Virus genome (UHGV): UHGV-1753993 | Origin: a virus | DNA: 25,078 bases | Direction: 5' to 3' (one strand) | In this document: piece after piece, positions 5,417 to 23,934 of the stretch | Layout of the letters: every line of letters begins with the position of its first letter | Position numbering within the stretch: the stretch's first letter is position 1 | Notes under the pieces: generated by a model | Database searches by the model: none | What the model was told of the DNA's origin: nothing | Seen by the model: only the letters and a program-made list of their open reading frames with translations | Translations under genes and position numbers: made by a program

Positions 5417-5728
5417 ATGAATATAAACGCATTCAAAGCAATTGAAAAACAACTCAAGCATCTAAAATTTTATGACAGAATAAATCTGTCTCATCTTGAT
5501 ATTCATAGCAGCGTTAACAATGCACAAGTTAAGTTAATAAGCTGTCAATACATGGGTTGCCTTGGCTCGCCAAAAGAACTTCGGTTCGCAGTTAAACGAA
5601 CTGATATGCAGGCAGCGCCAACATCATGGTATCACTATTTAGCAGTGCCAGAATTGTTCTCACAAGATGCAATCGAACAAATTAAAGCAACAATTAAAGT
5701 AGCTATATCTGCAAAAACTCAGCATTAA
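5417..5728 (+). CDS. Hypothetical protein (103 aa)
   Basis: Track ORF with ATG start; start region CTCTACAACAATGAA shared with 5751. Confidence 0.6.
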   Translation: MNINAFKAIEKQLKHLKFYDRINLSHLDIHSSVNNAQVKLISCQYMGCLGSPKELRFAVKRTDMQAAPTSWYHYLAVPELFSQDAIEQIKATIKVAISAKTQH

Positions 5729-5750
5729 ACAACTCAAAATCTCTACAACA

Positions 5751-6230
5751 ATGAACATCAACGACATTAACAAAGAACTTCTTAAAATCTTCTTAGAGAA
5801 GCATGGAGAAGTTCGTCTTTCTAAGAAACATGACTTTCTTGCAATAGAACGCCAACGTACAGACACTCATGTTATTGTAGGCGTATCCTGCAATTTCTTT
5901 GACGATTGTCATACGACCATATCGCAATTTGAAATTCCTGTAAAAGACTGGGACAACCGCAGCAAGTTCATTGCAATGAAAGACTATGTTCGTCAGCCAA
6001 TTGTGCATGAGGACACTGATATGTTTCCGTGGCTGCATTGTATCAAATTTGACATGTCAGTCAAAGCATTCGAATATGTTCCGATTTCTGCACAGTCAAA
6101 TGCAATAGAGCTTGAATTGCTCAACAATCCGCCCTACAAATGGTGCAATAAAGAGCCTGAATTCGATGACTTTGATGACGACTTTGCAAGTCTTGAAGAT
6201 TGCATGGGATATGATGACGATAATGAATAA
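5751..6230 (+). CDS. Hypothetical protein with acidic C-terminus (159 aa)
   Basis: Track ORF with ATG start. Confidence 0.65.
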   Translation: MNINDINKELLKIFLEKHGEVRLSKKHDFLAIERQRTDTHVIVGVSCNFFDDCHTTISQFEIPVKDWDNRSKFIAMKDYVRQPIVHEDTDMFPWLHCIKFDMSVKAFEYVPISAQSNAIELELLNNPPYKWCNKEPEFDDFDDDFASLEDCMGYDDDNE

Positions 6231-6242
6231 AACGCGACTATC

Positions 6243-6533
6243 ATGACACCAGATTATACAGTAGCATTCAGTATTTGCGAAAACAACAAACAAGTCGCAT
6301 ATCGCAAAGCAGAAGTAGGTCCAGAACAATTTGCAGTCATGTCATCTATGCAGATTGGTGCAATCATCAATTTAACAGACAGTGTTAATGTACCTGCAGA
6401 ACGTCGTCAAGAAATGTCATCGCTGTGCGGCGCATATCGCATTATTGACATACAGTACAGTGTAAAAGTAGAAACAATATTGAGTACTTTTGCAGCTTGT
6501 CAGCATTGTGTCATCAAACTTGTGCGAGCATGA
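6243..6533 (+). CDS. Hypothetical protein (96 aa)
   Basis: Track ORF; ATG 12 nt after the preceding stop. Confidence 0.55.
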   Translation: MTPDYTVAFSICENNKQVAYRKAEVGPEQFAVMSSMQIGAIINLTDSVNVPAERRQEMSSLCGAYRIIDIQYSVKVETILSTFAACQHCVIKLVRA

Positions 6534-6670
6534 AATTGAACAAGTTGTTCAAATTGCGTCAACGTTTCATAACTTGTTCATTGATTCTAATGTTCGCATG
6601 GAACTGTGCAATGCTGCAAACAATGATATCGATTCTGTAGTCAAGCGAATTCTTAACATCTCAATGTAAC

Positions 6671-6967
6671 ATGCAAACTAATATGCAAACTAACACATTA
6701 TATCTTGCAAGGCTATCTAATGGTCAAGACATTGGCATAACAGAACTTGCACAGCCAGTATTTCCATGTTTTGTGTATGATGACACATCAAAGGTCTATC
6801 TTACACAAGCAGAACTTGAACAGCAGCCTCATGCAAGACATTGTCATGCAATACCAGATGCACATGCATTACATGTCAGTGGTGTTGGTTATGTACGAGG
6901 CTGGACTGAATTATTTGCCGCATGCAAATCATTAAGAACTGACATCATAAAACTTGAGCGTATATGA
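6671..6967 (+). CDS. Hypothetical protein, paralog of 7291-7551
   Basis: Track ORF; shared motifs ITEL.QPV..C and GYVR.W.EL with 7291-7551. Confidence 0.6.
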   Translation: MQTNMQTNTLYLARLSNGQDIGITELAQPVFPCFVYDDTSKVYLTQAELEQQPHARHCHAIPDAHALHVSGVGYVRGWTELFAACKSLRTDIIKLERI

Positions 6968-7260
6968 AAAACTTTCTGACAATTGTTGCATGCATTATGT
7001 TCATGCTGTTAGGCTATATTCTGAATGGCTGCATTATTATGAACTTCTGGGAGTGGTTTGTAATGCCTGTGTGGCCAGCATTGACTGCGTTATCGCTTAA
7101 GCATGCAATTGGGATATCATTTGTACTGACATTGTTCAAGAATCATGACACAATCAACAAGTTCAGTGAATTGCCGATTGCTGCGCAGTTCTTTATGTAT
7201 TGCATCATGCAGCCTGCAATAATTATGTTCTTGGGTTTTATGGTGCATTGCTTTTTGTAG
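6964..7260 (+). CDS. Small hydrophobic membrane protein (about 3 predicted TM segments)
   Basis: Track ORF; ATGA start/stop overlap with the preceding gene; sequence dominated by hydrophobic runs. Confidence 0.6.
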   Translation: MKNFLTIVACIMFMLLGYILNGCIIMNFWEWFVMPVWPALTALSLKHAIGISFVLTLFKNHDTINKFSELPIAAQFFMYCIMQPAIIMFLGFMVHCFL

Positions 7261-7290
7261 ATATCTTAACAATATCATAAATTGCAAGCA

Positions 7291-7551
7291 ATGGACAAAC
7301 AAGTACGATGCATATTGCGCAATGGCAAGAAAATCACAGTGACTGAATTGTCAGAGCCTGTGTATCATTGCGTATACACAAGTAACAACGCAGAAGTTTG
7401 GCTAACTGCCAAGCAAATCAAAGATGCTGCAGGTGCAGTCAAGTATGTTGACAGCAAGCCATACATGTTGCATGTCTTTATGACAGGCTACGTTCGTGAC
7501 TGGTCTGAATTGCATAAGCGATATGATATTGTAGAACTACAAAACGTCTAA
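7291..7551 (+). CDS. Hypothetical protein, paralog of 6671-6967
   Basis: Track ORF 7282-7551 starts at TTG; first in-frame ATG is 7291. Confidence 0.6.
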   Translation: MDKQVRCILRNGKKITVTELSEPVYHCVYTSNNAEVWLTAKQIKDAAGAVKYVDSKPYMLHVFMTGYVRDWSELHKRYDIVELQNV

Positions 7552-7555
7552 GAAT

Positions 7556-7918
7556 ATGAAACGATTTACATTGTTGTTCATTGCAATTGCATGCATTGCA
7601 TGTGCTGCAGTTAAGCCAACATATGTGTCAACTGTCACTTTGCAACCACGAGAATTTGTTGATAGTGTATGCAATGCACATAATACGCATTTGCCTGAAA
7701 TTGATGTGTGGCATGCTCAAGCGACTGATTCTACTTGTCTTGTTGCAAGAGTAGATACGACATTCAAACATGCTCGATACATTACTACTTCAGCGCCATA
7801 CATTAAGTCAAATGGCAAAGTCGACAACAAACGCTGGTATTTGATTGTTGCGTCAGTTTATCCTTATAGAGATTCTGTGCGTGTAGTGATGCGAATTGAG
7901 CCTCAATCAAATGAATGA
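7556..7918 (+). CDS. Putative secreted protein or lipoprotein (N-terminal signal MKRFTLLFIAIACIACAA with lipobox-like IAC)
   Basis: Track ORF; hydrophobic N-terminus followed by Cys, read by eye. Confidence 0.55.
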   Translation: MKRFTLLFIAIACIACAAVKPTYVSTVTLQPREFVDSVCNAHNTHLPEIDVWHAQATDSTCLVARVDTTFKHARYITTSAPYIKSNGKVDNKRWYLIVASVYPYRDSVRVVMRIEPQSNE

Positions 7919-8079
7919 CAATGCAATCTTGCTGGTTAAGCCCATCAGGTCAAGTCACCTACTGTGACTTTGCTGAACATAGCAAAACTGCTGACATATT
8001 GTTGCAAAAGCTCAAACCAGAGTTGTTGACGCATACAATATGCCAGTTAGTCTTGCGCATGACCAGTTGCAGAACTTGA
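7915..8079 (+). CDS. Small ORF (54 aa), not in ORF track
   Basis: ATG overlaps the preceding stop (ATGA); fills an otherwise gene-free gap; found by manual translation. Confidence 0.3.
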   Translation: MTMQSCWLSPSGQVTYCDFAEHSKTADILLQKLKPELLTHTICQLVLRMTSCRT

Positions 8080-8186
8080 GCAATTATGCTACATTCGATA
8101 TTACAGCTGTGGAAGGCACTACGAAATGCACAAAGGCGCAACGTGAAGCAATGTTTGACTTGACAAGGCACTGGCATGAGCAATAA
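8040..8186 (+). CDS. Small ORF (48 aa), not in ORF track
   Basis: Manual translation; ends 15 nt before the next gene; overlaps the 7915-8079 ORF in another frame. Confidence 0.25.
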   Translation: MPVSLAHDQLQNLSNYATFDITAVEGTTKCTKAQREAMFDLTRHWHEQ

Positions 8187-8201
8187 GATACATTATCTGA
8201 T

Positions 8202-8816
8202 ATGAAACATACAACATATGGACTGGGCTACATCCAGTCACCTAAAGATGACAGAGACTTGCGCTTTGACGCAAAAACTGATTTGCCACTTGTGTACAAG
8301 TTGGCTCAACTTCAAGTAGAAGACCAAGGCAGTACATCAATGTGTGCAGCTTACACAGCAGCAACAATGATTGACTGGTGGTCTTCTGTGCTGTCTATGC
8401 AAGGCAAGCTTGACATCAAAGCATTGTATGAGCGTCGTTCAAATAAGCCTCAAGAGGGCATGATTCCGCGTGACGTCTTTAAGCTGCTCAAAGCACAGCC
8501 AATCAAGATGTCAAAGGGCTCAGAACAATCGCCGATAACTGCATACAGACGTTGCTACACAATTGATGAAGTCAAATCTGCTATTGTAGCAAATGGGCCT
8601 GTATTTGTTGGCATGCTCGTAAAAGACATTGAAGCTGAGCATTTCTGGAAAGGCGATGGCAATTTTGGTGGTCATGCAGTGTCAATTGTCGGCTATACAA
8701 AAGACTCATTCATCATCAAGAATAGCTGGGGTATATCTTGGGGTGATTCCGGCTACACTACAATGCCCTTTGAAGATTTTTCAGCAATCATTGAAGCTTG
8801 GACCATTTTGAGATGA
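8202..8816 (+). CDS. Papain-like (C1-family-like) cysteine peptidase
   Basis: Catalytic-triad signatures by eye: QGSTSMCAAYT (Cys), GGHAVSIVGY (His), NSWGISWGDSGY (Asn/Trp); no signal peptide. Confidence 0.65.
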   Translation: MKHTTYGLGYIQSPKDDRDLRFDAKTDLPLVYKLAQLQVEDQGSTSMCAAYTAATMIDWWSSVLSMQGKLDIKALYERRSNKPQEGMIPRDVFKLLKAQPIKMSKGSEQSPITAYRRCYTIDEVKSAIVANGPVFVGMLVKDIEAEHFWKGDGNFGGHAVSIVGYTKDSFIIKNSWGISWGDSGYTTMPFEDFSAIIEAWTILR

Positions 8817-9553
8817 GCAGAGAATCAGAATTGGCTGCAGCAAATGCAATATTGGATGCTGCAGAAGTAAGTGATGCATTAGAAGTCTATAAGCAGTTTG
8901 ACCGAAGCAAACTTGACAAGACACTTGACAAGTGTTCAAAATACGTTGACGAAGTTCGCAAATTGTGCATAGCAGCAGATGTTAAGTCGCCATTTATCGA
9001 TGCTTCAATTGAGATGGAGAAGACGAACATCAATTTGCTTTGCAAACAAGTGTTTTATGCAATGCATGCACTTGATTCAGTATTCGAGCGCATTGATGCA
9101 CAAGGCGGGGGCATGGGTGAGTTTGCGTTTCTCATCAAACTGCAGAATGATGCAATGTCGTTGGTTCAGCAGTATATATCATATTGTCGAACTCTTCCCA
9201 ATGTACTTGCGTCACTCAATAATAATGTTCGAGCAACTCAAGCAGAATTGCAACAAGGCTCTGGTCAATCTGAACAACAGTCAGGCATCAATGGTGAACT
9301 CGTAACTCGTTCAATCGTTGACCTCATCAAAATTGCAGAAAAGCATAACAGCACATTTGAGCAACTCAAAGATGACAATGATGACAATCCACAGCCATTG
9401 TTTGAAGCAGATGATGAAGTTGCAAAACTGCTTGGTGATGACGTAGAACGTTACACTGATGAAAAGACTTATGCTGAAACAATGAAAGCTGAGGGCAAAG
9501 AGTTCAATGCTGAAGCTGAGTTGGCCAAGCAAGCAAAACCTGAAGTGAAATGA
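8813..9553 (+). CDS. Hypothetical acidic protein
   Basis: Track ORF 8798-9553 starts at TTG; ATG at 8813 overlaps the upstream stop (ATGA). Confidence 0.6.
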   Translation: MSRESELAAANAILDAAEVSDALEVYKQFDRSKLDKTLDKCSKYVDEVRKLCIAADVKSPFIDASIEMEKTNINLLCKQVFYAMHALDSVFERIDAQGGGMGEFAFLIKLQNDAMSLVQQYISYCRTLPNVLASLNNNVRATQAELQQGSGQSEQQSGINGELVTRSIVDLIKIAEKHNSTFEQLKDDNDDNPQPLFEADDEVAKLLGDDVERYTDEKTYAETMKAEGKEFNAEAELAKQAKPEVK

Positions 9554-9572
9554 CAGTTGTAAGTTTATATGC

Positions 9573-10696
9573 ATGAGTCGCTACAAGCAAGATACGCCAT
9601 TAACTGGCGCAGCTATTGAGAAAAGAATTGCAGAACTTGAAGCTGAAAGAGATGAATTGTTAAGGGTGACAGAGAATGTTAGATTAGGCAAACATAAGAC
9701 AGCTCATAGTGAAATTGCACGAAAGTACAACTACAAAATTGGGTGCTTAAAAAAGTATGGGTTTGAAAATGCGATGAAATGCACTGCGCTAAAAAAATCA
9801 AGCAATCAATACCAGACGTGCAAATAATGACGTTGATGCAATGATTGCAAAAATGCAAGCAACAAACTTAAAACGTTATGGCCACGCAAATGGCAATGTA
9901 GAAAAAATTACTGCAACTAAAGTACAGCGATTTGGCAATGGCTATGGCAACAAAGCAAAGGCAATTGATACCAAAAAAACGTAAATATGGCAATGCATGG
10001 GGTGACCGCTCAAAAATCTGTGCAACAAATTTAGAACGTTATGGTTATGCAAATGGCAATGTTGCTAAAATGTGTAAAACTAAACGTGCACGATGGGGCA
10101 ACGCGTTTGGCAATTTGACTTTGATTCGTGAACGTTTAGCAGACTTGTATGGCGCTGTATGCCATTTTAGCGTGCGCTCAAAGTCAAAGCCATGTTCAAA
10201 GCTTGAGTTATTTGTGCATGATAAGATATTACATGCTCTTGGCATTAACTTTGAATATTCACATTTAATAGGTGGCAGATTGTATGATTTGCGATATAAT
10301 GACATAGTTATAGAAATTAGCCCAACAATATCGCACAATAGCACGTACAGTTTTGCATATCTAAATAATAGAACACATAATAATGTGCCAATGCATACGC
10401 ATTATCATTTTGATAAGACTCAACTTGCTCTCAAACATGGCTACATATGCATAACAATTTTTGACTGGCATAACTTAAACGACGTTGTGTCAATTGTTGG
10501 TATGCATTTAGCAAAGCTATCAATAAACTCAACAGACTTCGCACTCAATCCGCAGTTGTCAGATGACAAGTCAACAATTCGCAAACACTGGTGTCATTTG
10601 AAGACAAAAGAGCATATTGAAGACTGCGGACAAGATGAGCAAGAGATGATTGACGCTGGTTATGTTGCAGTGTACGATTGCGGTCATGCAAGATAA
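9573..10696 (+). CDS. Repeat-containing protein (five or more units of about 18 aa, T-x-[KL]-x-R-[YFW]-G-x-[AG]-x-G-[NV]), interrupted by +1 frame breaks at two A7 tracts
   Basis: Track ORFs 9573-9827 and 9932-10696 plus an unlisted 9841-9984 ORF; the amino-acid repeat continues across frames 0, 1 and 2, switching at A7 9791-9797 and A7 9973-9979. Confidence 0.5.
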
Positions 10697-10722
10697 GTGC
10701 AAATGATATTCGCATGTTGTAT

Positions 10723-10804
10723 CATATTCATATACAATATGAATATGCATGTTGCACAATACATATACAAATAACAAATAAACTTCTGAAGATTTTCTGA
10801 AGAG
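10723..10804 (+). promoter_or_regulatory. Upstream region of the SSB gene: hairpin (11-bp stem CATATTCATAT / ATATGAATATG, 10723-10747), TGTTGCACAAT motif (10750-10760), direct repeat TTCTGAAGA x2
   Basis: Read directly; function inferred from position only. Confidence 0.35.
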
Positions 10805-10847
10805 TTCATTTCAAACTTTTTGTTAAACTTTCTAAAATTTTATTGCG

Positions 10848-11981
10848 ATGTCACAAATTGAAAATGGACAGACCAGCAATCAGCCTCTGTCAATCTTTGA
10901 TGTCCAGCCGGACAATGTAGCAAGCTTTGCTAAGCCGGAACGTTCTGCAGGACCCGAGTTCTTTAATCCTAAGCCGCAGGATTCGCCAAAGGACAAAGTT
11001 TATCGTGCAGTTATTCGCGTATTGCCGAATTTAGCAGACCCAGCAGTACCGATTTCAATCGTTCGTTATTACTGGTTTGCAACTGGCCATAATCAGGGCT
11101 TCCGCTACAATTCGCCGAGCTCGCCTAATCCGCATCCTGAAAATCCGGAAAATTTGATGAAACCCTACGGTTGGTGTCCCATTTCGGCATTCTACTGGGA
11201 ACTCATCAATACCAAGGATGCTCAGCAGGAAGCACTTGCAAAGCGAGAGTTCAGTATGCAGAGTCAGTACACTTGCCTCGTGCAAATCAAGGCTGATTCA
11301 GTGCACCCTGAGAACGTTGGGAAAGTACTCCCATATCGACTCCCTGCTGCATTGTATAAAAGAATGCTGAGCTCAATGAAGCCGACTGACGAAGACATCC
11401 AGATGGGCGCTCAGCCTATGGACATGTTCCATCCTGTTAAGGGCCATGACATTCTCTTGAAGATTACGCTTAAAGACGTCAATGGCGTTGAAATGCGTGA
11501 CTACGAGACTTCGACGATTTCGCCCAACGTATCGTCGATGCTGCTTGCAGATGGCAGCCTTGTTGACCAGGCGAAGTATGACACTGACCCTGCATACAAG
11601 CAGCAAATCATGCAGCAGATTGTCGACATGCTCAAGGAGTACCCGAATGTCGAAAAGGAGTGGGGCTACCACGAAGCTTCTGATGACATCAAGCGTCAGG
11701 TTAAGATGCGCCTTGCTAACTACAAGGATGTGTCGGATATCTGGCCTGACATTGTCATCAATCCGTCAGCAGCTCAGCAGGCACAGACTACTCAGCCTGC
11801 ACCAGCAGCAGCTCCGGCAGCTGCGCCTGCTACTGCACCAGCAGCTCAGACAGCCATTGACCCGTTTGCAGCAGCTTCAGCACCTGCAGCAGAGCCTGTA
11901 CCTGCAGCAGCTCCAGCAGCAGCGCCTACAGCAGCAACGATGGATGCTGAAACTGAAGCATTCATCAATGGGCTCAAGTAG
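10848..11981 (+). CDS. T4 gp32-like single-stranded DNA-binding protein with a Pro/Ala-rich C-terminal linker
   Basis: Matches to T4 gp32 recalled from memory (AVIRVLPN vs AVIRFLPS; ENVGKVLPYR vs ENEGKVFKYR); distinct codon usage and higher GC than neighbours. Confidence 0.75.
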   Translation: MSQIENGQTSNQPLSIFDVQPDNVASFAKPERSAGPEFFNPKPQDSPKDKVYRAVIRVLPNLADPAVPISIVRYYWFATGHNQGFRYNSPSSPNPHPENPENLMKPYGWCPISAFYWELINTKDAQQEALAKREFSMQSQYTCLVQIKADSVHPENVGKVLPYRLPAALYKRMLSSMKPTDEDIQMGAQPMDMFHPVKGHDILLKITLKDVNGVEMRDYETSTISPNVSSMLLADGSLVDQAKYDTDPAYKQQIMQQIVDMLKEYPNVEKEWGYHEASDDIKRQVKMRLANYKDVSDIWPDIVINPSAAQQAQTTQPAPAAAPAAAPATAPAAQTAIDPFAAASAPAAEPVPAAAPAAAPTAATMDAETEAFINGLK

Positions 11982-12003
11982 CACAAGCGCATCAAAGATG
12001 CTC

Positions 12004-12041
12004 GAGGCTCAGACAGACATTGTTTGTCTGAGCCTCTTTTT
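12004..12041 (+). terminator. Intrinsic terminator: 12-bp stem GAGGCTCAGACA / TGTCTGAGCCTC, 9-nt loop, TTTTT
   Basis: Read directly; 23 nt after the SSB stop codon. Confidence 0.75.
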
Positions 12042-12059
12042 CATTTAACAAGTCATGTC

Positions 12060-13655
12060 ATGAGACTCAAAGTCATAGGCGATTTGCTTCAGATTGTCGA
12101 AGCAAATGATTTGGAAGCCAAGCAATTATACGCTGAAGCTACTGCAGAAGTGCCAAACTTTGTTGCAGCAGCAGTCAATAAGCGCAAAGGGCGCAAAACA
12201 GATTGGAATGGGCAAATTTGCTATGTGTTTAATGGCATATACCTACCATTTGGCTTATGGAAGCGTATTTGGGACTTACAACTGCGTAAGCCAATTCCAT
12301 ACGAAGTCAAGATTGAGGGCCTCATTGACAACTTTGACCGCATTGTGTCGCTTGAAGAGCTTGAGCAATGGTCAGAATGTCTTGATATGCCATTTGACAT
12401 GCGTGACGACCAGCTCAAGTTTATTTTGACTGCTTGCAAATTCAAGAAATGTTGTTTACGCCTTGCGACTTCTTATGGCAAAACAGCTCTTGTTTATGTA
12501 ATTAGTCGCTTCTTAAAAGATAGCAAGAGAATTAATGGCAAGACGCTTATGATTGTGCCCTCGGTGCATCTCGTGTCACAAGCGTTTGACGATATTGTTG
12601 TCAGCTATCAACAAAATGAGTCAGATTTAGCAAACAAGAACTACAAACTCTACAAAATCCATTCAGGTGTTCGCAATGAGTACAAAATGCAAGATGCAGA
12701 TATGGTTGTTGGCACGTATCAAAGTCTTGTCAACATGCCGGCAGATTTTTTCGAACAGTTTGACTTCATTGTAACTGATGAAGCTCATGGTGCGCCTGCA
12801 GCGTCAATTCGTGAAATCTTTAGTCATTGCACAAAAGCTCATTATCGTCTTGGCGTATCTGGTTCATTGCCGCTTGAACATACAGCAGCTCGTTTGACAA
12901 TTGAATCATACATTGGTCCAATACTGGGCACATTTGGCGTAGCTCAAGCACTTGAAAAGAACATTGTGTCTGACTTCGAAATCAAACGAGTAGTCATTGA
13001 GCATTCAGCAGAATATGATGCGCCGTTTGTGCAGTATCTTGAAGAGCATCCTGAAGTGTTTGATAACACTGCAAGACTGCTTCCAGCAGAACAACATCAT
13101 TGCATGAACTACGTCGATGCTAACAAGCTCATTGCAAAAATTATTTGTTCGCTTGACAAAAATGCTCTTGTGCTTTGCAAACGACGAGACCATGTGCAGA
13201 ACATCTATGATGCTTGTCAAACATTCATACAGCAGTCTGGTGTTGACAAGGTTGTTCACATCATTAGAGGTGATGTACCCTTGCATGAACGCAAAGACAT
13301 GCTTGCAATGATGGAAGCAGAGCCTGACAGACACATCATGATTGCAACAACTGGCACATTATCTACAGGTGTATCTGTGCATGCTTGGTTTTACGCTGCA
13401 TTCTTGATGATTGGCAAATCTGACAACGTAACATTGCAGTCAATTGGGCGACTGTTGCGTAAGCATCCACTTAAGCAGAAAGCAATCATTCTTGATATTG
13501 CGCATAAGCTTACAATTCATAGTGACACGCTTGTCAAGCTTCGCAAAGGCTACTGCTACTGCAATTATGATATGCAGCATTTTGCTGCTCGAAAACGAAT
13601 CTATGACGCTGAAAAGATGCCAGTAGATACAAATGTGCAAAAATTCAAGCTTTGA
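12060..13655 (+). CDS. uvsW: UvsW-like SF2 DNA helicase (Walker A TSYGKT, DEAH box VTDEAHG)
   Basis: Helicase motifs read directly; N-terminal W.G.I...LPFGL and later blocks (MIVPS..SQAFDDI, VVGTYQS, LGVSGSL, QSIGRLLRKH) match T4 UvsW as recalled; start re-set from track TTG 12024 to ATG 12060. Confidence 0.8.
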   Translation: MRLKVIGDLLQIVEANDLEAKQLYAEATAEVPNFVAAAVNKRKGRKTDWNGQICYVFNGIYLPFGLWKRIWDLQLRKPIPYEVKIEGLIDNFDRIVSLEELEQWSECLDMPFDMRDDQLKFILTACKFKKCCLRLATSYGKTALVYVISRFLKDSKRINGKTLMIVPSVHLVSQAFDDIVVSYQQNESDLANKNYKLYKIHSGVRNEYKMQDADMVVGTYQSLVNMPADFFEQFDFIVTDEAHGAPAASIREIFSHCTKAHYRLGVSGSLPLEHTAARLTIESYIGPILGTFGVAQALEKNIVSDFEIKRVVIEHSAEYDAPFVQYLEEHPEVFDNTARLLPAEQHHCMNYVDANKLIAKIICSLDKNALVLCKRRDHVQNIYDACQTFIQQSGVDKVVHIIRGDVPLHERKDMLAMMEAEPDRHIMIATTGTLSTGVSVHAWFYAAFLMIGKSDNVTLQSIGRLLRKHPLKQKAIILDIAHKLTIHSDTLVKLRKGYCYCNYDMQHFAARKRIYDAEKMPVDTNVQKFKL

Positions 13656-13796
13656 TATTGTGCAAAAGTTGATGCTACGTAGTACATTAATCATATAACA
13701 AAAAACAATATGCAACCATACACTTCTACTGAAATCAAAGCAATGTTGCGGCCTATAGTATAGCAGCGAGACCTCAAAGGTGTATTTGACACTTAT

Positions 13797-14150
13797 TTGC
13801 TTGTCACAAAGCGAATTCAAGCTGCAGCAAATGCAACACAACAGCCTGCAACAAAAGTTGATTTTGACAGAGCGTCAAATCAGTTTGGCTTAGCATTGAC
13901 TGAGCTGTACAAAGAGCAGGGCATCAAAGCAGTAGATTTCGTAGAACTTGATATCTATAAGCGCATCTTTGCAGCACAAATTGCAAAAGCAATGCGTGCT
14001 GAAGATGTTGACATAGTCAAGTCTGCAAAGAAGCTTGAGCGCATCATGCAGTATGACCTTAAAAAGCTCATCAACGTCAAAGACAAGAACATCAGCAAAG
14101 GCACTGCAAGATTGCTTGAAGCTGTTCTTGCTGCAGAAGATGATGAGTAA
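13797..14150 (+). CDS. Hypothetical protein; no canonical ATG near the 5' end (track start is TTG)
   Basis: Open frame 13764-14150; an in-frame ATG at 13710 is separated from it by a single TAG at 13761-13763. Confidence 0.4.
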   Translation: MLVTKRIQAAANATQQPATKVDFDRASNQFGLALTELYKEQGIKAVDFVELDIYKRIFAAQIAKAMRAEDVDIVKSAKKLERIMQYDLKKLINVKDKNISKGTARLLEAVLAAEDDE

Positions 14151-16514: not shown

Positions 16515-16528
16515 CACAATTTATTCGT

Positions 16529-17074
16529 ATGGCAAAGAAAAATGCTGTTGCAGCAAAGCCTGCAACTGAACTCAAAGACATGACAATGGAGCAGCTGGAA
16601 GCACTCAAAAAGTCGCTCAGTGAAGCTCGAAAAGAACTCGAAGACAAATCGCAGTCAATGCAGATGATTGTCACGACTGATGGCGAATTGCTCAAGTTTG
16701 TTGCACGTAATGTGTGCGAACTTGTTTTGCCGCAACTTGAGTTTGATATGCGACTTATGCGTGATGTTGTCGCATTTGCTGCATGGGCTACGGACGCTGC
16801 AAAAGGACGACGCACCATGGGCATCTTCGAGTTCAAGTACATTGTTCGTGCTGTATCGACGACGAAGTTCAAGGGCGCTCAGGTTGCTGCAGCACTTGAT
16901 TCACTCAACAATCTGCTTGAGGCACCTGCAGCAGAAGTACAGAAGTTCGATGAGCAGTATCGTGAAAACGCCACTGCACTTGACGCATGCTTGCAGGAAA
17001 TTGACAAGCGCAAGCAAGCTGAGCTAGCTGAAAAGACTGCTGAAGCTGAATCGCAGGAAGCAGACGCAAACTAA
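16529..17074 (+). CDS. Hypothetical helical, acidic protein with G/C-ending codon usage
   Basis: Track ORF 16439-17074 re-set to ATG 16529 (MAKKNAVAAKPA); followed by a strong terminator. Confidence 0.6.
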   Translation: MAKKNAVAAKPATELKDMTMEQLEALKKSLSEARKELEDKSQSMQMIVTTDGELLKFVARNVCELVLPQLEFDMRLMRDVVAFAAWATDAAKGRRTMGIFEFKYIVRAVSTTKFKGAQVAAALDSLNNLLEAPAAEVQKFDEQYRENATALDACLQEIDKRKQAELAEKTAEAESQEADAN

Positions 17075-17119
17075 AATGACATTGACATAGTGTCATTGAT
17101 TTTAAGGGTTAGTAAAGTG

Positions 17120-17151
17120 CAAGCAGGCTGCAATTGCAGCCTGCTTGTTTT
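17120..17151 (+). terminator. Intrinsic terminator: 28-nt perfect palindrome CAAGCAGGCTGCAATTGCAGCCTGCTTG followed by TTTT
   Basis: Read directly. Confidence 0.75.
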
Positions 17152-17275
17152 GTGTACAATGACGATATTTTTAGCAACACAAAGTGCAAGTACGCACTTT
17201 ATGTTGTACAATGATGATATTTTAACAACATATGTTGTGCAAAAGCTCAATACATGTTGTACAATATATTCATAT
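17151..17275 (+). promoter_or_regulatory. Repeated 30-bp elements containing TGT(T)GTACAAT (17151-17180, 17203-17232, partial 17255-17275) upstream of gene 17295
   Basis: Direct repeats read directly; motif core TTGTACAA is palindromic; function inferred. Confidence 0.4.
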
Positions 17276-17294
17276 ATGATAAAACAATACGAAT

Positions 17295-18677
17295 ATGCAC
17301 AATGATTTGATTATAGCGCAATTAAATGCTTTGCAGCAGCAATATGAAATTGTGTTTGATGTTGATTGCATTGCATGGCTTCGAAACAGATGCTCAACAT
17401 TTATAGGCATTCCACTGCCATATAATGATTACGTTATTTGTGTGCATCCAATTGTGCGACAAACTGTCGTAGTTGACATAACAAATGCAACTGAACACGA
17501 GCTATTTGAATTGGAAGAGTACATTGCAATGATTCATGCATTGTTGCAATCATATGCACGACATCTGCATTCACAACGATGCAACACGGAGTTTGCTGCA
17601 GTAGATGCGCCCTATTCTGCAAAAACACATTTTGTGCCTGTAATACTTAAGCCTGCATATCCTGTACGAACACAAGACAAACCACGACAAGATAAGACAG
17701 ACATTCAAAGTAGAGAATGCTTTGCAATTGCTCGCATCATTGATGCAACAAAGCAGCATCAATACAAGGCGCATCTTATTGTAGATGATGCAGAAGTGCA
17801 TGACCCAAAACTTTTCGACAAAGATGTGCTATGCTGCTCAGTTGACTATGTGCAGCACTCAATTGACAAATATGGTGTGTTGTACATTGTATGCTCAGCA
17901 ATGAATGACTCGATGAGTCAGTCAGTCATCTACAAACAGCACAAGCAACTCATTGAATCATGGAAGGGCGACATTGTATGGCTATGGTATGATTTACGAC
18001 TCGTGCCGCACATTGCAAACTTTAGATTGCGCTGCAAAAAGATGACAGTTGTCACACAAGCACAGAACATGCATAATGCGTTGTCAATGCTGACAGAAAT
18101 CAATGTCAACACAATTCAGCATGCAAGACTGGAAGGCATTCCATTGTATGCATCACATAACGAAAAACGTTTAGCAAAATTGCAATCAGGCAAGTTGACT
18201 ACTGCAATGCCGATGGTTGCTTGGAATGACATGTGTGCTGAACGCAAACAAGAAGTCATTGATTTGCTTGGCTGCGCAGACATCGAAACTCATGTTGTCG
18301 GCAATATCGACATTGATATGCCACATGTCTATGATGGCACAATCAAGTATTTTGACATATTAACATACTTGTCGCAGTTCGACTTTGCATACATTGTGTG
18401 TGAAGAGAATATGAAACAATGCAACGCAATTACATTCAGAGCAACTGAATCAATGCTTGCAGGCTTGCCTTGTATGTACGTGAATAATTGTGTGTGTCCT
18501 GACTTTATCAAGTATCATAAAGTCGCACACATCAAAAATGCCAAGCATTGTGCAGAAGTCTTCAAGTCATTAAGTGTAGATGAACTTGATGAGCTTATGA
18601 CATTACAAGACAACTATCTCATTGAGTTGCATACAAACATTGTAACAGACTTTATCAAAATTATAAACTCACTGTAA
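17295..18677 (+). CDS. Hypothetical protein (460 aa); C-terminal region weakly resembles the GT-B glycosyltransferase nucleotide-sugar-binding motif
   Basis: Track ORF with ATG start; motif ..FRATESMLAGLPCMYV.. by eye only. Confidence 0.6.
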   Translation: MHNDLIIAQLNALQQQYEIVFDVDCIAWLRNRCSTFIGIPLPYNDYVICVHPIVRQTVVVDITNATEHELFELEEYIAMIHALLQSYARHLHSQRCNTEFAAVDAPYSAKTHFVPVILKPAYPVRTQDKPRQDKTDIQSRECFAIARIIDATKQHQYKAHLIVDDAEVHDPKLFDKDVLCCSVDYVQHSIDKYGVLYIVCSAMNDSMSQSVIYKQHKQLIESWKGDIVWLWYDLRLVPHIANFRLRCKKMTVVTQAQNMHNALSMLTEINVNTIQHARLEGIPLYASHNEKRLAKLQSGKLTTAMPMVAWNDMCAERKQEVIDLLGCADIETHVVGNIDIDMPHVYDGTIKYFDILTYLSQFDFAYIVCEENMKQCNAITFRATESMLAGLPCMYVNNCVCPDFIKYHKVAHIKNAKHCAEVFKSLSVDELDELMTLQDNYLIELHTNIVTDFIKIINSL

Positions 18678-18681
18678 GCAT

Positions 18682-19407
18682 ATGAAATGGCTAACTTGGT
18701 CTGAAACAAAGCGGTTTCAACGAAATCTCATATATCTTAAAATGGCTGAGCTTTGGTCATTAAATTCACATGCTCAGCGAGCAAAAGTTGGCGCATTGCT
18801 TGTAAAAGATGGTTGCATAATTTCAGATGGCTATAATGGCATGCCAACTGGTATGTCAAATTGTTGCGAACATGATACTTCAGCAGGCATCAAAACCAAC
18901 AAAGAAGTTTTGCATGCAGAATCAAACGCATTGATGAAGCTGTGCAAATATGGCAATGCGACCGCAAATGACGCAGTGCTGTATGTAACATACAGTCCAT
19001 GCATTGATTGCGCAAAGCTTATTTTGCAAGCAGGCGTTAAGCAAGTGCATTTTGTTGACTTGTATCATCACATAGATGGCTTGCGACTACTTAGTAGTGC
19101 TGGCATTGAGTTATATTGGTACCCAAGAAGCGCAGCAGATTATGAGGTTGCATGCAATCAAGTAGACTTTGATGATGCATTTCTTGCAAAGTGTGTCAAT
19201 ATCGTAGCAGTTAGTGACAATGTAGATGACATTGTGCATTGCAATTATGTGATATGCAATCTTGACGCAGCATTGTCATATGAGAAGATGCCAATGTATG
19301 ACACGTCATATGGTGTCATTGCAAATCACATCATAGATGAAGTACAATATCAACATGTAATAGATAATTGCAAAGCATATGAGCAAACTCTTCATTTTGA
19401 AATTTGA
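18682..19407 (+). CDS. dCMP deaminase-like (zinc-dependent cytidine/deoxycytidylate deaminase fold)
   Basis: Signature HAESNAL ... PCIDCAKLI read directly. Confidence 0.7.
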   Translation: MKWLTWSETKRFQRNLIYLKMAELWSLNSHAQRAKVGALLVKDGCIISDGYNGMPTGMSNCCEHDTSAGIKTNKEVLHAESNALMKLCKYGNATANDAVLYVTYSPCIDCAKLILQAGVKQVHFVDLYHHIDGLRLLSSAGIELYWYPRSAADYEVACNQVDFDDAFLAKCVNIVAVSDNVDDIVHCNYVICNLDAALSYEKMPMYDTSYGVIANHIIDEVQYQHVIDNCKAYEQTLHFEI

Positions 19408-20542
19408 CACATGTGTGCGTTCAGACATACAGCATCTTAAACATACAGAACCCATCGCATTTGCAGGGTTTGTGCAGACAATGTTTGATGCTGTGTATGT
19501 GTTTGGTGACCCTGAGAACAAACATGCAATACTTGATGAGCTTGTGCATGATAACGTGCATATCATCAATAACATACATGCATGGCAAGATATGCTGAAG
19601 TGCACAAAATCAGACGATTGCGCAATATTCTGGCAGGGCTCAAAGGCTGCTCTTGAACATTGCTCAGAATTTCAGCAAGATGTTCTGTGGAATGCATTCA
19701 AAGCATGGTGTTTGTCAAATGCTCGCAAATTTACGCTAACAACTGATTTGCGATTTGATTTTGACAAAGAGTGCACATTGACAAAGCGATTGCACAACTA
19801 CAAAGAGTACTTAGAATCACAAAAAGACAACATTACACATCTGTGTCAACATAAAAATCTCAAGTATGCTTGGCTTGATGAGTCTCAATGTGTGTTTGCA
19901 CCATTGCAAATCATTGCAGCAGTCAATGCATTGAAGCTTCAATATATAGAGCCAAGATTGCTTAAACGACAAGCAACAATGCAAAATGCAATTGAAGCTC
20001 ATGTGCGTAGCTTTGCTGACATAAAGCAGCAATATGCATGCTGTGCAAGTTGTGCAGGTTTCACATATCTTGACGAGTATCGTAGAAGCGTGATTGAACA
20101 ATTTGTCATACATATGCGTGATACATGTCTCATAACATCGTATATTGATGACACAATTTTGTCTGCGGTTAAATCAGCAGCACCAAACTTTACACTTAAA
20201 TACAAAGTCGCATATGACGCAATGCCTCATGTAATATCGAGGTCCGCGTACAATCTTGTAGTTGGTGATTCATTGTATGTGCAAGCAGGCTTGCTGCCAA
20301 ATCGATGGGTTGAAGGCGTACTTGCAAATTGCTGCAACATACTTGTAGATTATAAGCCAATTACCCTATTTGCTGACATTGTAGGCTTCGATGACTACGC
20401 GACATTTGCAACACTTAATAGCAAAACATGCGTACGCACTGCGCCCACAAATTTTGATGATTGCAAACAAGCACAGCAAAAAGCTCTTGCAGCAATGATT
20501 GTGCAGTGTTACACTATTCTTGAACAAACATTCAAATCATGA
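19379..20542 (+). CDS. Hypothetical protein (387 aa)
   Basis: Track ORF with ATG start; overlaps the upstream gene by 29 nt. Confidence 0.6.
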   Translation: MSKLFILKFDTCVRSDIQHLKHTEPIAFAGFVQTMFDAVYVFGDPENKHAILDELVHDNVHIINNIHAWQDMLKCTKSDDCAIFWQGSKAALEHCSEFQQDVLWNAFKAWCLSNARKFTLTTDLRFDFDKECTLTKRLHNYKEYLESQKDNITHLCQHKNLKYAWLDESQCVFAPLQIIAAVNALKLQYIEPRLLKRQATMQNAIEAHVRSFADIKQQYACCASCAGFTYLDEYRRSVIEQFVIHMRDTCLITSYIDDTILSAVKSAAPNFTLKYKVAYDAMPHVISRSAYNLVVGDSLYVQAGLLPNRWVEGVLANCCNILVDYKPITLFADIVGFDDYATFATLNSKTCVRTAPTNFDDCKQAQQKALAAMIVQCYTILEQTFKS

Positions 20543-22095
20543 GAACACATATAATTACTCAAACTGGCTACATAGACTTTTTCAATTCATTGACTTGGAA
20601 AAGTGCAGCAATGTTTGAACGAGCAAACAAAGATGACTTATTCATTGTGGTAGGCTTTGTGCCACAGATGAAAGATGTCGCAGATTGCTTGACTACATCA
20701 GGTCATCATGTCAAATATGTTGATGTGTCAGATTTTGCTCAATGTCGCATTGCTGACATTATGAAGCGTCTTGATATGTCAATGACATCTTGCAATATGA
20801 GCTACATTGCAACATTTAATATATTCAATGGCGCATGCAATTCATTTCAGCAGGCAGAACTTGATACATTTTCTGCATATTGCAAGACATTTGGTACTGC
20901 ATCAGTCAAACGTGATTTGCCGCTAATTGACGCAGCAGGCTCAGTCTACAAAGCACTCATGTATGTAGTGTATGAGATGCTGTCAGTCATTATGCAGTAC
21001 AATATTGCATTGAATGCTCGCAAGACTAATGACAAACAACAAGGCACAGTCATAAACAACTTTGTCGAAGACCCATTGCAGCACAAGCTCAATTACATTG
21101 ACTATCGCTATTCAGGACCATATGAAAGCGCATTTAGTGCATCAAAGATATTCAAAGTGCAACATTGGTACTTTCATGATTGCAATAATGTCAAAAAGCT
21201 TGGTCTTGAATACAATTCTGCATATGTATATGATGTTACAGCAGAACAAGATGCTATTGCATATTATGGATGGTGTCCATCACAGCAATACTGGTATTTG
21301 CATGGCAAAACTTGGAATGATATTGAAGTAACATTCGATGACAAGCGACTGAATTTTGTATTTGCATTGACAAATACTTGGCGAGACAAAACTGAACGCA
21401 CAGAACTCATCAACAAACTCATGCATCTGCACAATCAAGATGCAATTGACAAGGGTATTGTGTTCAGATTTTTCAGCAGAGATAAACAACAGCAGTCAAT
21501 GTCAGACAAGTTGCTGCCATATGACACATACCTTGAACTCATCAAGCATAGCAGATTCACATTGATTGTGCCGTCATATGATGCAAACTGTTTTAGTTTG
21601 CGTAGATTCTGTGAAAGCATTGTGCTTGGCTGTGTTCCACTTGTGCACAACTCATGCAAACTCTATATGTTTGACAGATGGCCACAGTTCAAACAGTTTG
21701 TCATTAAGAAGCTCATGATTAGCGATGATGACTTGCAGCATCTTGAAGACATTGTTCAGCCATATAGACATACACAATTGTTAAAAGAGTTGTGGCACAC
21801 TGATTTCATTCAGCAATATACGGGTGACTTTGTGTATGATATTGCATTGCATCTTGCATATATCAATAAAGATGTGCCAATCAAGAAGTCTTGTGACAAT
21901 TGCGACAATACACTTTCACATGAGCGCTGTGTAATTTGTGAAGCAAACAACTTTATGAGTCATGCATGGTCATGTTCATATTGCAAGTTCTGCAAGTCTG
22001 ATATGTCATGCGCACTTGATGCAGACGATGGCTCAGCCGCATGTTGCAATGGTGACAGCTTTGTGTTGAAAGAGCCATTCGTAGAAGTGCAATGA
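20539..22095 (+). CDS. Putative glycosyltransferase (exostosin/GT47-like motif) with Cys-rich C-terminal tail
   Basis: Motif YDTYLELIKHSRFTLIVPSYDANCFSLRRFCESIVLGCVPLV resembles the F[CT]LxP.G...R..E.L..GC[IV]P signature; C-terminal CDNCDN..CVIC..CSYCKFC cluster; ATGA overlap at start. Confidence 0.6.
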   Translation: MRTHIITQTGYIDFFNSLTWKSAAMFERANKDDLFIVVGFVPQMKDVADCLTTSGHHVKYVDVSDFAQCRIADIMKRLDMSMTSCNMSYIATFNIFNGACNSFQQAELDTFSAYCKTFGTASVKRDLPLIDAAGSVYKALMYVVYEMLSVIMQYNIALNARKTNDKQQGTVINNFVEDPLQHKLNYIDYRYSGPYESAFSASKIFKVQHWYFHDCNNVKKLGLEYNSAYVYDVTAEQDAIAYYGWCPSQQYWYLHGKTWNDIEVTFDDKRLNFVFALTNTWRDKTERTELINKLMHLHNQDAIDKGIVFRFFSRDKQQQSMSDKLLPYDTYLELIKHSRFTLIVPSYDANCFSLRRFCESIVLGCVPLVHNSCKLYMFDRWPQFKQFVIKKLMISDDDLQHLEDIVQPYRHTQLLKELWHTDFIQQYTGDFVYDIALHLAYINKDVPIKKSCDNCDNTLSHERCVICEANNFMSHAWSCSYCKFCKSDMSCALDADDGSAACCNGDSFVLKEPFVEVQ

Positions 22096-22140
22096 GCATA
22101 ACTACGTTGTACTGTAATCAAAAATCAAACATAATACACA

Positions 22141-22713
22141 ATGATAGCGATATTTGAAGGTGTAGAAGCTTCAGGCAAAACAACACTCATCAATGAATTG
22201 ATGAAGTGGCGCCCATGGTTTATCAATTGCAAACGAACATCTCGTTCTTGGTGGCAGCAGCATGAGTCAGGTGATGACCCAATGCCCGAACCTTGGGACC
22301 TCAATGAAGCGTTCTTTTATGATTGGCGCTTCTTCTTAGAGTTCATTGGAAATGACTCTCAAGGCTTTGGCAAAGCAACATTTTTGTGTGACCGTTCGTT
22401 CATCACACATCAAATCTTCAACACAACGCTTTACAAAGAGTTGCACACTGATAAGCATCAAGCATTCTTTGAAGCATATGAAAAGAAGCTTGCAACATTG
22501 CCGCACGTAGTGTTCTTATGCAAGCGTGATGTTGTGCCAGATTTTGTTGATAACTTTTGCGGTGATGTCAACATTGATGTCAGCAAACGCAATGAAATGA
22601 TTGCTGCATATGATGAGTGGCGAAAGAACTCACCATTGCATATTGTCGAAATCGACAACAATGCAAGTCTGCAAGACAATGTGCTAAAATGCTTAGCTGA
22701 ACTTGGTGCATGA
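22141..22713 (+). CDS. P-loop nucleoside-monophosphate kinase, thymidylate-kinase-like
   Basis: Walker A EGVEASGKTT at the N-terminus and a DRS motif (LCDRSF) by eye. Confidence 0.6.
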   Translation: MIAIFEGVEASGKTTLINELMKWRPWFINCKRTSRSWWQQHESGDDPMPEPWDLNEAFFYDWRFFLEFIGNDSQGFGKATFLCDRSFITHQIFNTTLYKELHTDKHQAFFEAYEKKLATLPHVVFLCKRDVVPDFVDNFCGDVNIDVSKRNEMIAAYDEWRKNSPLHIVEIDNNASLQDNVLKCLAELGA

Positions 22714-22925
22714 GTAGAGTAACACCACAGCAATTACAAATGATGACAGACAAGCATGTCGCGTCATCAGTCATATTGCATACAATTGAATCTGCGTTAG
22801 CTTGCGACATCAAAGCAAAACTCGTAGATATCTTGAAGCTTAACAATGTCGAAGCGTATCTTATTGAAGACATTATAGATGAATGCTTTGACAAAGATTT
22901 GATTGCCTCAGACTGTGCAAAATGA
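22710..22925 (+). CDS. Small acidic hypothetical protein (71 aa)
   Basis: Track ORF; ATGA overlap with the upstream gene. Confidence 0.5.
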   Translation: MSRVTPQQLQMMTDKHVASSVILHTIESALACDIKAKLVDILKLNNVEAYLIEDIIDECFDKDLIASDCAK

Positions 22926-22932
22926 CAATGTA

Positions 22933-22943
22933 TGTTGTACAAT
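22933..22943 (+). promoter_or_regulatory. TGTTGTACAAT motif copy
   Basis: Exact 11-mer identical to 17202-17212 and 17255-17265. Confidence 0.35.
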
Positions 22944-22998
22944 ATCAACATATAAAATCCATCCTTTATCCAAGCTTTACAAAGCAAGAAACCTGCCA

Positions 22999-23050
22999 GA
23001 TGGCTGCTGCACATGATTTCACAAAATGTAGCAGCAGCCATCATTTTTTT
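22999..23050 (+). terminator. Intrinsic terminator: 12-bp stem GATGGCTGCTGC / GCAGCAGCCATC with T7 tail
   Basis: Read directly. Confidence 0.6.
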
Positions 23051-23058
23051 GACTCAAG

Positions 23059-23196
23059 ATGAGACGAGACAAGTACCATAAGCTTAACATACCTGATAAG
23101 TGGAATACTGAATCAGATTACACTGCATCAATAGTCATATATGCAATTATGGCTGCACTTGCAGTAGCATTTGCTTTGTGTGTAGATATGATATAA
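23059..23196 (+). CDS. Small single-pass membrane protein (45 aa), not in ORF track
   Basis: Manual translation MRRDKYHKLNIPDKWNTESDYTASIVIYAIMAALAVAFALCVDMI; follows a terminator. Confidence 0.3.
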   Translation: MRRDKYHKLNIPDKWNTESDYTASIVIYAIMAALAVAFALCVDMI

Positions 23197-23202
23197 CGTT
23201 AT

Positions 23203-23934
23203 ATGTGTATGAAAGCACAATCAAATATCAAAAGCGGCATAGATGCACTTAGTAAAGTGCGTGTAGCCAACACATCTATTGTCAATAAACACTGGTATGA
23301 CAAGCTTAGCAATTCTATTGCAGACTTTCTGACAAGTGTGTTGCTCATTATGATTGTGACTATCACATTTCTTATTGGCATCACTACGCATATTTATGCA
23401 GTATTTGGTGACTATTGGCTTGCGATAGGCTATCAATTCGTGGTGTTGCTTACGTCAGTCAACTCTGATTTGTTGCCAAAATACAAGAACATTCCACTGA
23501 TTGCAGTGTTTATGTCATGCTTTACATGCGTGTTCGTGTTTTTGAGCTTTGATGGTCACTTATCAACTGGCATCATGCTTCTTGTCAATGCATTGAAGTC
23601 ACTTGCCATAGCACTTGTCGAATTCATCTTTGCGTATTTGTTCGTAGCTCGTAACAATCGCACAAAAGCAGAACAAGCAGGCATTCAGTTTGACTTTGAG
23701 GGCAATGTCATTGAGCTGCATGCACAACAAGATGCTGCACAAGTTGAAGACACCGAAGTGTTACCAGCAGACAATGAGCCTATACATGTTGAAGAAGAGC
23801 AGCCAACTGTAATCGAACCAGTTTGGCAGCCAAAACGCTGTCATTGTGGTTTTGTTGCAGACTCTGAAGATGCTTGGAATGACCACATTGCTAACTGCGA
23901 TGTCTACAAATTTTTTGAATCATCTGCAAAATGA
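23203..23934 (+). CDS. Multi-pass membrane protein (about 4 TM) with acidic, Cys/His-containing C-terminal domain
   Basis: Track ORF with ATG start; hydrophobic segments by eye; C-terminal C-x-C ... H ... C. Confidence 0.65.
   Translation: MCMKAQSNIKSGIDALSKVRVANTSIVNKHWYDKLSNSIADFLTSVLLIMIVTITFLIGITTHIYAVFGDYWLAIGYQFVVLLTSVNSDLLPKYKNIPLIAVFMSCFTCVFVFLSFDGHLSTGIMLLVNALKSLAIALVEFIFAYLFVARNNRTKAEQAGIQFDFEGNVIELHAQQDAAQVEDTEVLPADNEPIHVEEEQPTVIEPVWQPKRCHCGFVADSEDAWNDHIANCDVYKFFESSAK

Follow-up and report, generated by a model that had tools for sequence, protein, structure and literature searches.

A general lack of Shine-Dalgarno (SD) sequences has been reported for about 40 Bacteroidetes genomes (PMC3155529), and in Bacteroidia the anti-SD is described as present but sequestered by the proteins bS21, bS18 and bS6 (PMC7797042, PMC13000453, PMC9976891). 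In Flavobacterium johnsoniae adenines are over-represented at positions -14 to -11 relative to the start codon, those at -12 and -13 are correlated with ribosome density and increase the expression of reporters, weak mRNA structure favours initiation, and adenines at -3 and -6 tune its efficiency and do not mark all genes (PMC6847099). Phages of Cellulophaga, a member of the Bacteroidetes, were also reported earlier to be devoid of the SD feature (bioRxiv 10.1101/2021.04.21.440840). SD-less initiation is already established in Bacteroidia and their phages, and the phage described here is a further, uncultured case which brings no new translation biology. We analysed a stretch of 25,078 nt of the virus genome UHGV-1753993 (hereafter, the window), whose translation starts lack SD sequences and carry adenines at -13 and -12 in G-poor, weakly structured leaders. 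It represents approximately one seventh of an uncultured, tailed phage of some 175 kb from the human gut, which very probably belongs to a group of large phages of Bacteroidota and whose genes would do without SD sequences because the ribosomes of its host do not use them.

The window equals a metagenome contig deposited at ENA except for one base, a difference in the length of a C tract. Two IMG/VR contigs co-assembled from human faecal samples, with lengths of 174.6 and 175.6 kb, share 99% identity with it, and one of the two is apparently a circular permutation with respect to the window. No match was obtained when the complete window was compared by Megablast with 50,697 deposited phage records. 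Flanking sequence was taken from the 99%-identical contigs IMGVR_UViG_3300045988_152288 and IMGVR_UViG_3300045988_149023 (here L007 and L009, the latter being contig 149023), which together with the window amounts to 45 kb. Neither tRNA genes nor Rfam families were found in the window, and recoding of stop codons was rejected: the genes are intact under code 11, with TGA, TAA and TAG all serving as stops (TAG ends four genes). A co-directional array of about 30 genes occupies positions 5417-25078 on the plus strand. Starts were compiled from the six-frame list of open reading frames (ORFs), the gene calls of the ENA record and inspected alternative starts, those of four genes being placed upstream of poly-G tracts, to a total of 35, of which 29 fall within 5417-23934, the range considered by an earlier sequence-only reading of this DNA.

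None of the 35 starts, and hence none of the 29 in that range, is preceded by GGAG, GAGG or AGGA at -20 to -1, and none forms with the anti-SD ACCUCCUUA a duplex of -4 kcal/mol or stronger, our threshold for an SD call, the mean being -0.2 and the strongest -3.9 kcal/mol. The sequence-only reading had noticed that no SD-like purine tract precedes about 12 starts, an observation that this systematic scan extends to the complete set. For the controls a single naive ORF caller, which takes the longest ORFs beginning with ATG and removes overlaps greedily, was applied identically to every sequence; the starts scoring at -4 kcal/mol or stronger amounted to 70% in a T4-like phage of E. coli and to 68% in a T4-like phage of Synechococcus, over an own background of 15% in both cases, against 4% in this phage (window plus 10 kb on each side, 48 starts) over a background of 5.3%. 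Given that the control phages score 68-70%, a normal SD signal would have shown, and if 70% is expected the chance of finding 0/29 is about 1e-15. A two-fold depletion of the dinucleotides GG and CC makes SD-like words rare everywhere in this DNA; the SD core occurs in 3% of all 20-mers of the window, so that about 0.9 of the 29 starts would be expected to carry it by chance. What the count of 0/29 reflects is a lack of enrichment at starts and not a special avoidance there, and anti-SD binding at starts is slightly weaker than background (p about 0.03-0.05). Pairing with an alternative anti-SD was rejected, the sole enriched upstream words being A-rich, with no purine-rich or other complementary motif.

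The starts do share a position-specific adenine signal. Of the 35 starts, 25 have A at -13 (p=1.4e-6), 19 have it at -12 (p=0.004) and 29 at one or both of these positions. The enriched A-rich words are TAAAA and AAAC, the latter beginning at -14 or -13 in 8 starts; the region tgaTAAAACaatacgaatATG (17275-17297, plus strand), with A at -15 to -12 and without a purine-rich SD, is an example. G content is 13.5% upstream of starts versus 21% within genes, the folding energy of 60-nt windows is -5.8 kcal/mol when the start is at their centre versus -11.0 for intragenic ones (p=2e-12), and ATG is the start codon in 34 of the 35 genes. Initiation as described for Bacteroidia (F. johnsoniae, Prevotella bryantii) has the same traits, namely no SD enrichment, A-12/A-13 within an A-rich stretch at -14 to -11, low G, weak structure around the start and a near-exclusive use of AUG, and in Flavobacteriia phages the same scan yields a sharp A peak at -14 to -11. 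The intragenic mean of -11 kcal/mol is in itself unusually strong folding for DNA of 40% GC, possibly derived from a GC/TGCA-rich, palindrome-prone composition of the coding regions.

Protein comparisons bear on the affiliation of the phage. The closest tblastn matches of its gp32-like single-stranded DNA-binding protein (SSB) are the Chryseobacterium phages MA9V-1/2, and those of its UvsW-like helicase are a 462-kb uncultured phage, MA9V-2, huge phages of >634 kb, PAU and the Tenacibaculum phage pT24, followed by hundreds of weak matches in cyanophages; the order SSB-then-helicase is common to the window, MA9V-2, pT24 and PAU, at 27-31% identity. About 2 kb past the right end of the window, positions 12818-16744 of L007 encode a fused SbcD-SbcC-like protein of 1308 aa (phrog_35725, 6e-114) with full-length tblastn matches in 11 of the 50,697 phage records, only from Chryseobacterium, Tenacibaculum, PAU and a 735-kb huge phage, and once such clade-restricted proteins are used no cyanophage appears among the closest relatives. 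For the peptidase encoded in the window, 15 of the 23 matching phage records are Prevotella Lak phages, which come from human faeces. Bacteroidetes are the predicted hosts of the huge phages >634 kb (PMC7162821), and the host strain of PAU, HER1398, is a Sphingobacterium (PMC3738902), for which reason PAU was rejected as a case of an SD-less phage growing on an alphaproteobacterium. The host field of the PAU record in GenBank (NC_019521.1) says Sphingomonas paucimobilis, and the SD-less starts and 31% GC of this phage fit the correction to Sphingobacterium. All six relatives submitted to the SD scan are at or below their own background, with starts at -4 kcal/mol or stronger amounting to 6% in MA9V-2, 0% in pT24, 6% in PTm1, 10% in PAU, 10% in LR756500 and 3% in Lak-A1. 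As far as sequence similarity can tell, an affiliation to Bacteroidota is supported by every relative that could be placed, and the faecal source points to gut Bacteroidales, which are an abundant SD-less group in human faeces.

Judged by these proteins, the phage belongs with the large Bacteroidota phages that include PAU, MA9V-1/2 and PTm1/pT24. Like PAU, MA9V-1/2 and PTm1/PTm5/pT24 it combines SD-less starts with a gp32-like SSB followed by a UvsW-like helicase, and it shares with the PAU, MA9V and Tenacibaculum phages the fused SbcD-SbcC-like protein of about 1300 aa, which is almost confined to this group. It differs from them in a protein identity of only 25-31%, in its genome of about 175 kb versus 213-235 kb (the two contigs, of 174.6 and 175.6 kb, stay below the >200 kb that define the PAU/MA9V/PTm1-like phages as jumbo), in its origin from the human gut versus soil, sea or insect, and in a strong GG/CC avoidance and a family of poly-G genes not seen in these comparators. 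Prevotella Lak phages and the >634-kb huge phages are also SD-less, have a related helicase and papain-like peptidase (27-36% identity) and, in the case of Lak, a gut origin, but they have three- to four-fold larger genomes, and Lak phages read TAG as sense and have a GC content of 24-26%, whereas the phage studied here uses the standard code at 40% GC.

On this basis, and by analogy with F. johnsoniae, it can be proposed that the 16S rRNA anti-SD tail of a Bacteroidia host would be sequestered by bS21, bS18 and bS6 at the platform of the 30S subunit, that the start would be chosen as an AUG in an unstructured, G-poor and A-rich leader, with the adenines at -12/-13, near bS1, acting as positive determinants, and that the phage mRNAs would be adapted to this start rule. 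The sequence-only reading had anticipated an SD-independent host of either Bacteroidota or cyanobacterial type; the first possibility is favoured by the A-13/A-12 signal together with the weak structure at starts, by the Bacteroidota-linked relatives and by the fact that these relatives are all SD-less, while the second loses ground in view of the 68% of SD-preceded starts in the Synechococcus phage. On the practical side, gene callers that rely on SD sequences will misplace starts in this phage, and the combination of no SD, A-13/A-12 and open structure can point, cheaply and without culture, to a Bacteroidota host for a gut phage that is otherwise unplaceable.

Several observations weigh against a Bacteroidota host. 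The genome-wide depletion of GG/CC alone makes SD words rare, and the bare absence of SD is therefore weaker evidence in this DNA than it would be elsewhere. Unlike in the Bacteroidia work, the signal is carried here by phage mRNAs whose host we infer, and neither A-3/A-6 nor a depletion of AUG is evident in what is a small set of starts: A occurs at -3 in 11 of 35 (p=0.56) and at -6 in 16 of 35 (p=0.05), and ATG/GAT counts of 15/8 upstream, 11/12 downstream and 34/16 in mid-gene give no clear AUG depletion near starts, the GAT comparison count being distorted because GATC is totally avoided. The A peak is also blunter than in Flavobacteriia phages, reaching 54-71% at -12/-13 as compared with 70-87%. 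The relatives are distant (25-37% protein identity), and scanning 185,579 species genomes, first with the helicase and then with the peptidase, brought up no relative and gave no direct link to a host. Furthermore, the Bacteroidota promoter TAnnTTTG is not enriched in the window (20 sites versus 25 +/- 5 expected), where only 1 of its 7 plus-strand sites is intergenic, whereas Tenacibaculum phages do show it, with 8-11 intergenic sites; and six promoter-like elements of sigma-70 geometry, described below, add no support for the host assignment.

These points have to be set against what other explanations can account for. Because the absence of SD by itself does not separate SD-poor lineages from one another, the phage could be mirroring a host from cyanobacteria, Mycoplasmatota or candidate phyla, an idea with which the hundreds of weak cyanophage matches of the helicase and a promoter-like motif that is not of the Bacteroidota type would agree. 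We consider it quite improbable, given that SD precedes 68% of the starts in the T4-like phage of Synechococcus, that the position-specific A-12/A-13 is the very signal described for Bacteroidia, that the SbcCD-like fusion matches only Bacteroidota-linked phages, that the peptidase is nearest to that of Prevotella Lak phages, and that the relatives come from human faeces, in which Bacteroidales abound. Nor is it likely that a eukaryotic virus with scanning initiation is at hand, despite the lack of SD and the A-rich context before AUG that such a virus would display; nine stop/start overlaps of 1 or 4 nt in polycistronic arrays, intrinsic terminators, T4-type gp32 and UvsW-like genes in the order of cultured phages, and database relatives that are all tailed phages reduce the chance of it to practically nil. 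The sequence-only reading had also dismissed a eukaryotic virus, rightly so in the light of the T4-type replication genes, the synteny with cultured phages and the intrinsic terminators.

The composition of the DNA raises a further alternative, in which the SD sequences would have been lost as a by-product of a purge of GG/CC at the DNA level, driven by defence evasion or mutational bias, in a host that may well use SD. GG/CC stand at about 0.5 of expectation; over the whole window AGGA, GGAG and GAGG are 4-6 fold below the mononucleotide expectation yet match the one based on trinucleotides; the codons NCC, GGG, GGA, AGG and CGG are almost unused, and the SD core is as infrequent as stated above, in 3% of 20-mers. 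A two-fold depletion, however, would not prevent selection from keeping SDs at some 30 sites, the compared relatives free of the GG/CC bias (observed/expected 0.8-1.05) are equally SD-less, and the purge leaves both the A-13/A-12 signal and the weak structure at starts unexplained, for which reasons we deem it very improbable. Much the same slight chance is granted to a factor of the phage itself (an S1, bS21 or initiation factor) which would read (T/C)AAAAC at -16 to -11, the signal then being a strategy of the phage and no mirror of its host. SD is rarely found in huge phages with possible genes for rpS1 (PMC7162821), bS21 is encoded by some phages (PMC9723584), and the DNA inspected covers about 45 of 175 kb; but no gene for a ribosomal protein or initiation factor lies within these 45 kb, and the same signal in uninfected Bacteroidia means that no phage factor is needed. 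It is also conceivable, albeit unlikely, that the GG/CC purge, which removes SD words on both strands and at synonymous sites, and the (T/C)AAAAC at -16 to -11 form together an adaptive, phage-specific expression strategy. If so, its purpose could be to avoid residual pairing with the anti-SD on host ribosomes lacking bS21, or else to evade a defence or protospacer adjacent motif (PAM) that reads GG/CC. Over all these alternatives, host ribosomes of the Bacteroidota type that do not use SD sequences provide by far the most probable explanation for the SD-less genes of this phage.

As to the compositional bias itself, restriction or PAM avoidance, mutational bias and DNA modification are the candidate causes. 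The GG/CC avoidance extends to synonymous sites (GCC 16 versus GCA 405, TCC 4 versus TCA 185, with CC at codon positions 2-3 at 0.18) and also to non-coding DNA. In the 45 kb made up by the window, L007 and L009, GATC is missing altogether (about 117 expected), CTAG occurs 3 times (54 expected) and CATG 249 times (446 expected), and TGCA is 4.9-fold above the mononucleotide expectation. Zero or near-zero GATC is also a feature of pT24 and PTm1.

The sequence-only reading had further listed nine stop/start overlaps, all of which we located in the sequence, on the plus strand. Seven are of the ATGA type: 6964-6967 (genes 6671-6967 and 6964-7260, with an A-tract at -15 to -12 inside the upstream gene); 7915-7918, where the downstream ORF, of 54 aa, appears to be a frameshifted remnant; 8813-8816 (the peptidase gene 8202-8816 and gene 8813-9553); 14968-14971 (genes 14537-14971 and 14968-15966); 20539-20542 (genes 19379-20542 and 20539-22095, with A at -13 to -11 inside the upstream gene); 22710-22713 (genes 22141-22713 and 22710-22925); and 23931-23934, between gene 23209-23934 and an ORF of at least 382 codons that starts at 23931 and runs off the end of the window. 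A TAATG overlap at 14148-14152 joins gene 13797-14150 to the thioredoxin gene 14150-14512, and a TGATG overlap at 15964-15968 joins genes 14968-15966 and 15966-16514. A 98-aa gene that is intact in L009 (16337-16633) has in the window (7915-8186) a copy broken by two 1-nt deletions and one 23-nt deletion.

These overlaps, of 1 or 4 nt, make up 9 of the approximately 30 co-directional junctions and are ordinary prokaryotic gene packing. The dense co-directional genes, the ATGA/TAATG overlaps and a related replication module recall the T4-type coupling of SD-using hosts; in T4-like phages, however, the downstream start is usually served by an SD within the preceding gene (70% of starts), whereas here no SD core precedes any of the nine overlapped starts. 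It follows that coupling, if there is any, would proceed via termination-reinitiation or A-rich unstructured leaders. A ribosome that ends at TGA or TAA may restart at the overlapping AUG, which would need no SD. On the other hand, in 7 of the 9 the coding sequence of the upstream gene provides an A at -13, and since the overlapped starts mostly keep their upstream A-tract, independent loading of ribosomes on an open A-rich stretch is probably possible at these starts as well.

The transcription units of the region would be bounded by terminators of the hairpin plus T type and by a repeated promoter-like element. Two very strong sites of the former kind lie just after genes: an intrinsic terminator at 12004-12046 (hairpin 12004-12036), 23 nt past the stop of the SSB gene, with a 15-bp stem of 8 GC pairs followed by TTTTTCATTT, and a terminator-like hairpin at 17119-17158 (hairpin 17119-17148), 45 nt past the stop at 17074, with a 13-bp stem followed by TTTGTGT, both on the plus strand. 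The terminators mentioned in the sequence-only reading are in this sense real, but the total of 22 terminator-like sites is not above the 17.7 +/- 4.4 found in shuffled sequences. A generic scan of the window for sigma-70 promoters was likewise overall not above shuffles. The promoter-like element, GTGCAA-N17-TACAAT, is present in six copies in the window, all intergenic and on the coding strand, as compared with 0 in 100 shuffles (the pattern being derived from the same data), and is usually followed 3-5 nt downstream by CATATA. All on the plus strand, the copies lie at 5351-5388, upstream of gene 5417; at 10697-10734, upstream of the SSB gene and with TATCAT as second box; at 13660-13697, just past the helicase stop codon and with TACATT; at 17184-17212 and 17237-17276, a tandem pair beyond the 17119 terminator of which the second ends 19 nt before the ATG at 17295; and at 22915-22954. 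CATATA accompanies all of these except the one at 17184, and further copies of the element occur at positions 9002 and 12749 of L007. On its sigma-70 geometry, the element may represent a phage-specific promoter class used in this 25-kb region, one that is neutral on the identity of the host; a comparable ATACATAT element is found in phage PAU some 25-35 nt before starts. The distance from the end of an element to the next AUG is about 19 to 115 nt and most starts are operon-internal, which does not fit leaderless initiation.

Regarding gene content, the gp32-like SSB is encoded at 10848-11981 (Pfam PF08804, 6.9e-16; phrog_224) and the UvsW-like SF2 DNA helicase directly 3' of it, at 12060-13655, both on the plus strand as are all genes mentioned next. 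The C-terminal part of the SSB (11794-11951) is an Ala/Pro-rich low-complexity repeat of the GCAGCAGC type, with a local GC of 0.51. The papain-like (C1) peptidase, with best phage matches in Prevotella Lak phages, is at 8202-8816, a thioredoxin with a WCVPC active site at 14150-14512, and a dCMP deaminase, extended at its C-terminus by about 90 aa, at 18682-19407. The 518-aa product of 20539-22095 has a weak, below-threshold match to GT47-like glycosyltransferases, that of 22141-22713 is a P-loop protein with a weakly dTMP-kinase-like N-terminus, and 23931-25078 contains the 5' part of a gene for a 391-aa protein weakly matching T4 beta-glucosyltransferase (phrog_7922, 5e-8). Most remaining proteins are ORFans. 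Sequence searches of Pfam, PHROGs, NCBIfam and PDB with the ORFs 14968-15966, 17295-18677, 19379-20542, 20539-22095 and the one beginning at 23931 gave nothing or weak glycosyltransferase hints, and for three of these five large ORFans tblastn against phages gave no match. It is tempting to view the window from 14968 to 25078, together with L007 11164-12396, as a possible nucleotide or DNA-modification gene set, comprising the dCMP deaminase, the P-loop kinase-like protein, the weak GT47-like and T4 beta-glucosyltransferase-like proteins and the large ORFans, all matches being weak except that of the deaminase; the corresponding region of PAU holds glycosyltransferases and dTDP-sugar genes.

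The left end of the window is of a different nature. Four paralogous genes, at 135-913 on the plus strand and at 1207-1790, 4036-4559 and 4595-5296 on the minus strand, have MKTTQLWFERQQSIAG as their common N-terminus and, behind it, a poly-G tract. Three of them are out of frame (G7, G7 and G8), and one extra G would restore products of 259, 193 and 173 aa, while the fourth, with G5, is intact and encodes 233 aa. The lengths of these tracts vary between near-identical contigs (G7 versus G6, C8 versus C7). The paralogues look like phase-variable contingency genes, as would be suggested by this variation, the alternative being homopolymer errors of assembly; genes of this kind have been described in Campylobacter phages (Sorensen 2021, cited in PMC10877375). 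A single-sequence AlphaFold2 model of the 4595-5296 product was unusable, with a predicted local distance difference test score (pLDDT) of 36.

All five G or C runs of at least 7 nt in the window fall within positions 1-4600. Among the homopolymers of this part, a C11 tract (2616-2626) and a G8 tract (2918-2925) flank five tandem copies of GTTTTGATGCAAGATGCAAAAC (28-34 nt, 2669-2833), each with 6-bp inverted ends, in an array located between divergent genes. Three near-identical contigs differ in the length of the C tract (11, 10 and 9 nt), which is the sole difference between the window and the ENA record and decides whether a minus-strand ORF of 289 aa is intact; the G tract at 2918 has 8 or 10 nt. 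Contig 149023 has a much shorter version (L009 10654-11164) of the segment that separates the first poly-G gene from the gene at 3541 (913-3500), and this segment is thus a variable cassette region. Tandem paralogs beginning MAVQTRxVLKTYFETGDKPT are found in this variable region at 3035-3463 and 3541-3951, and the genes at 5417 and 5751 have a near-identical leader and first codons.

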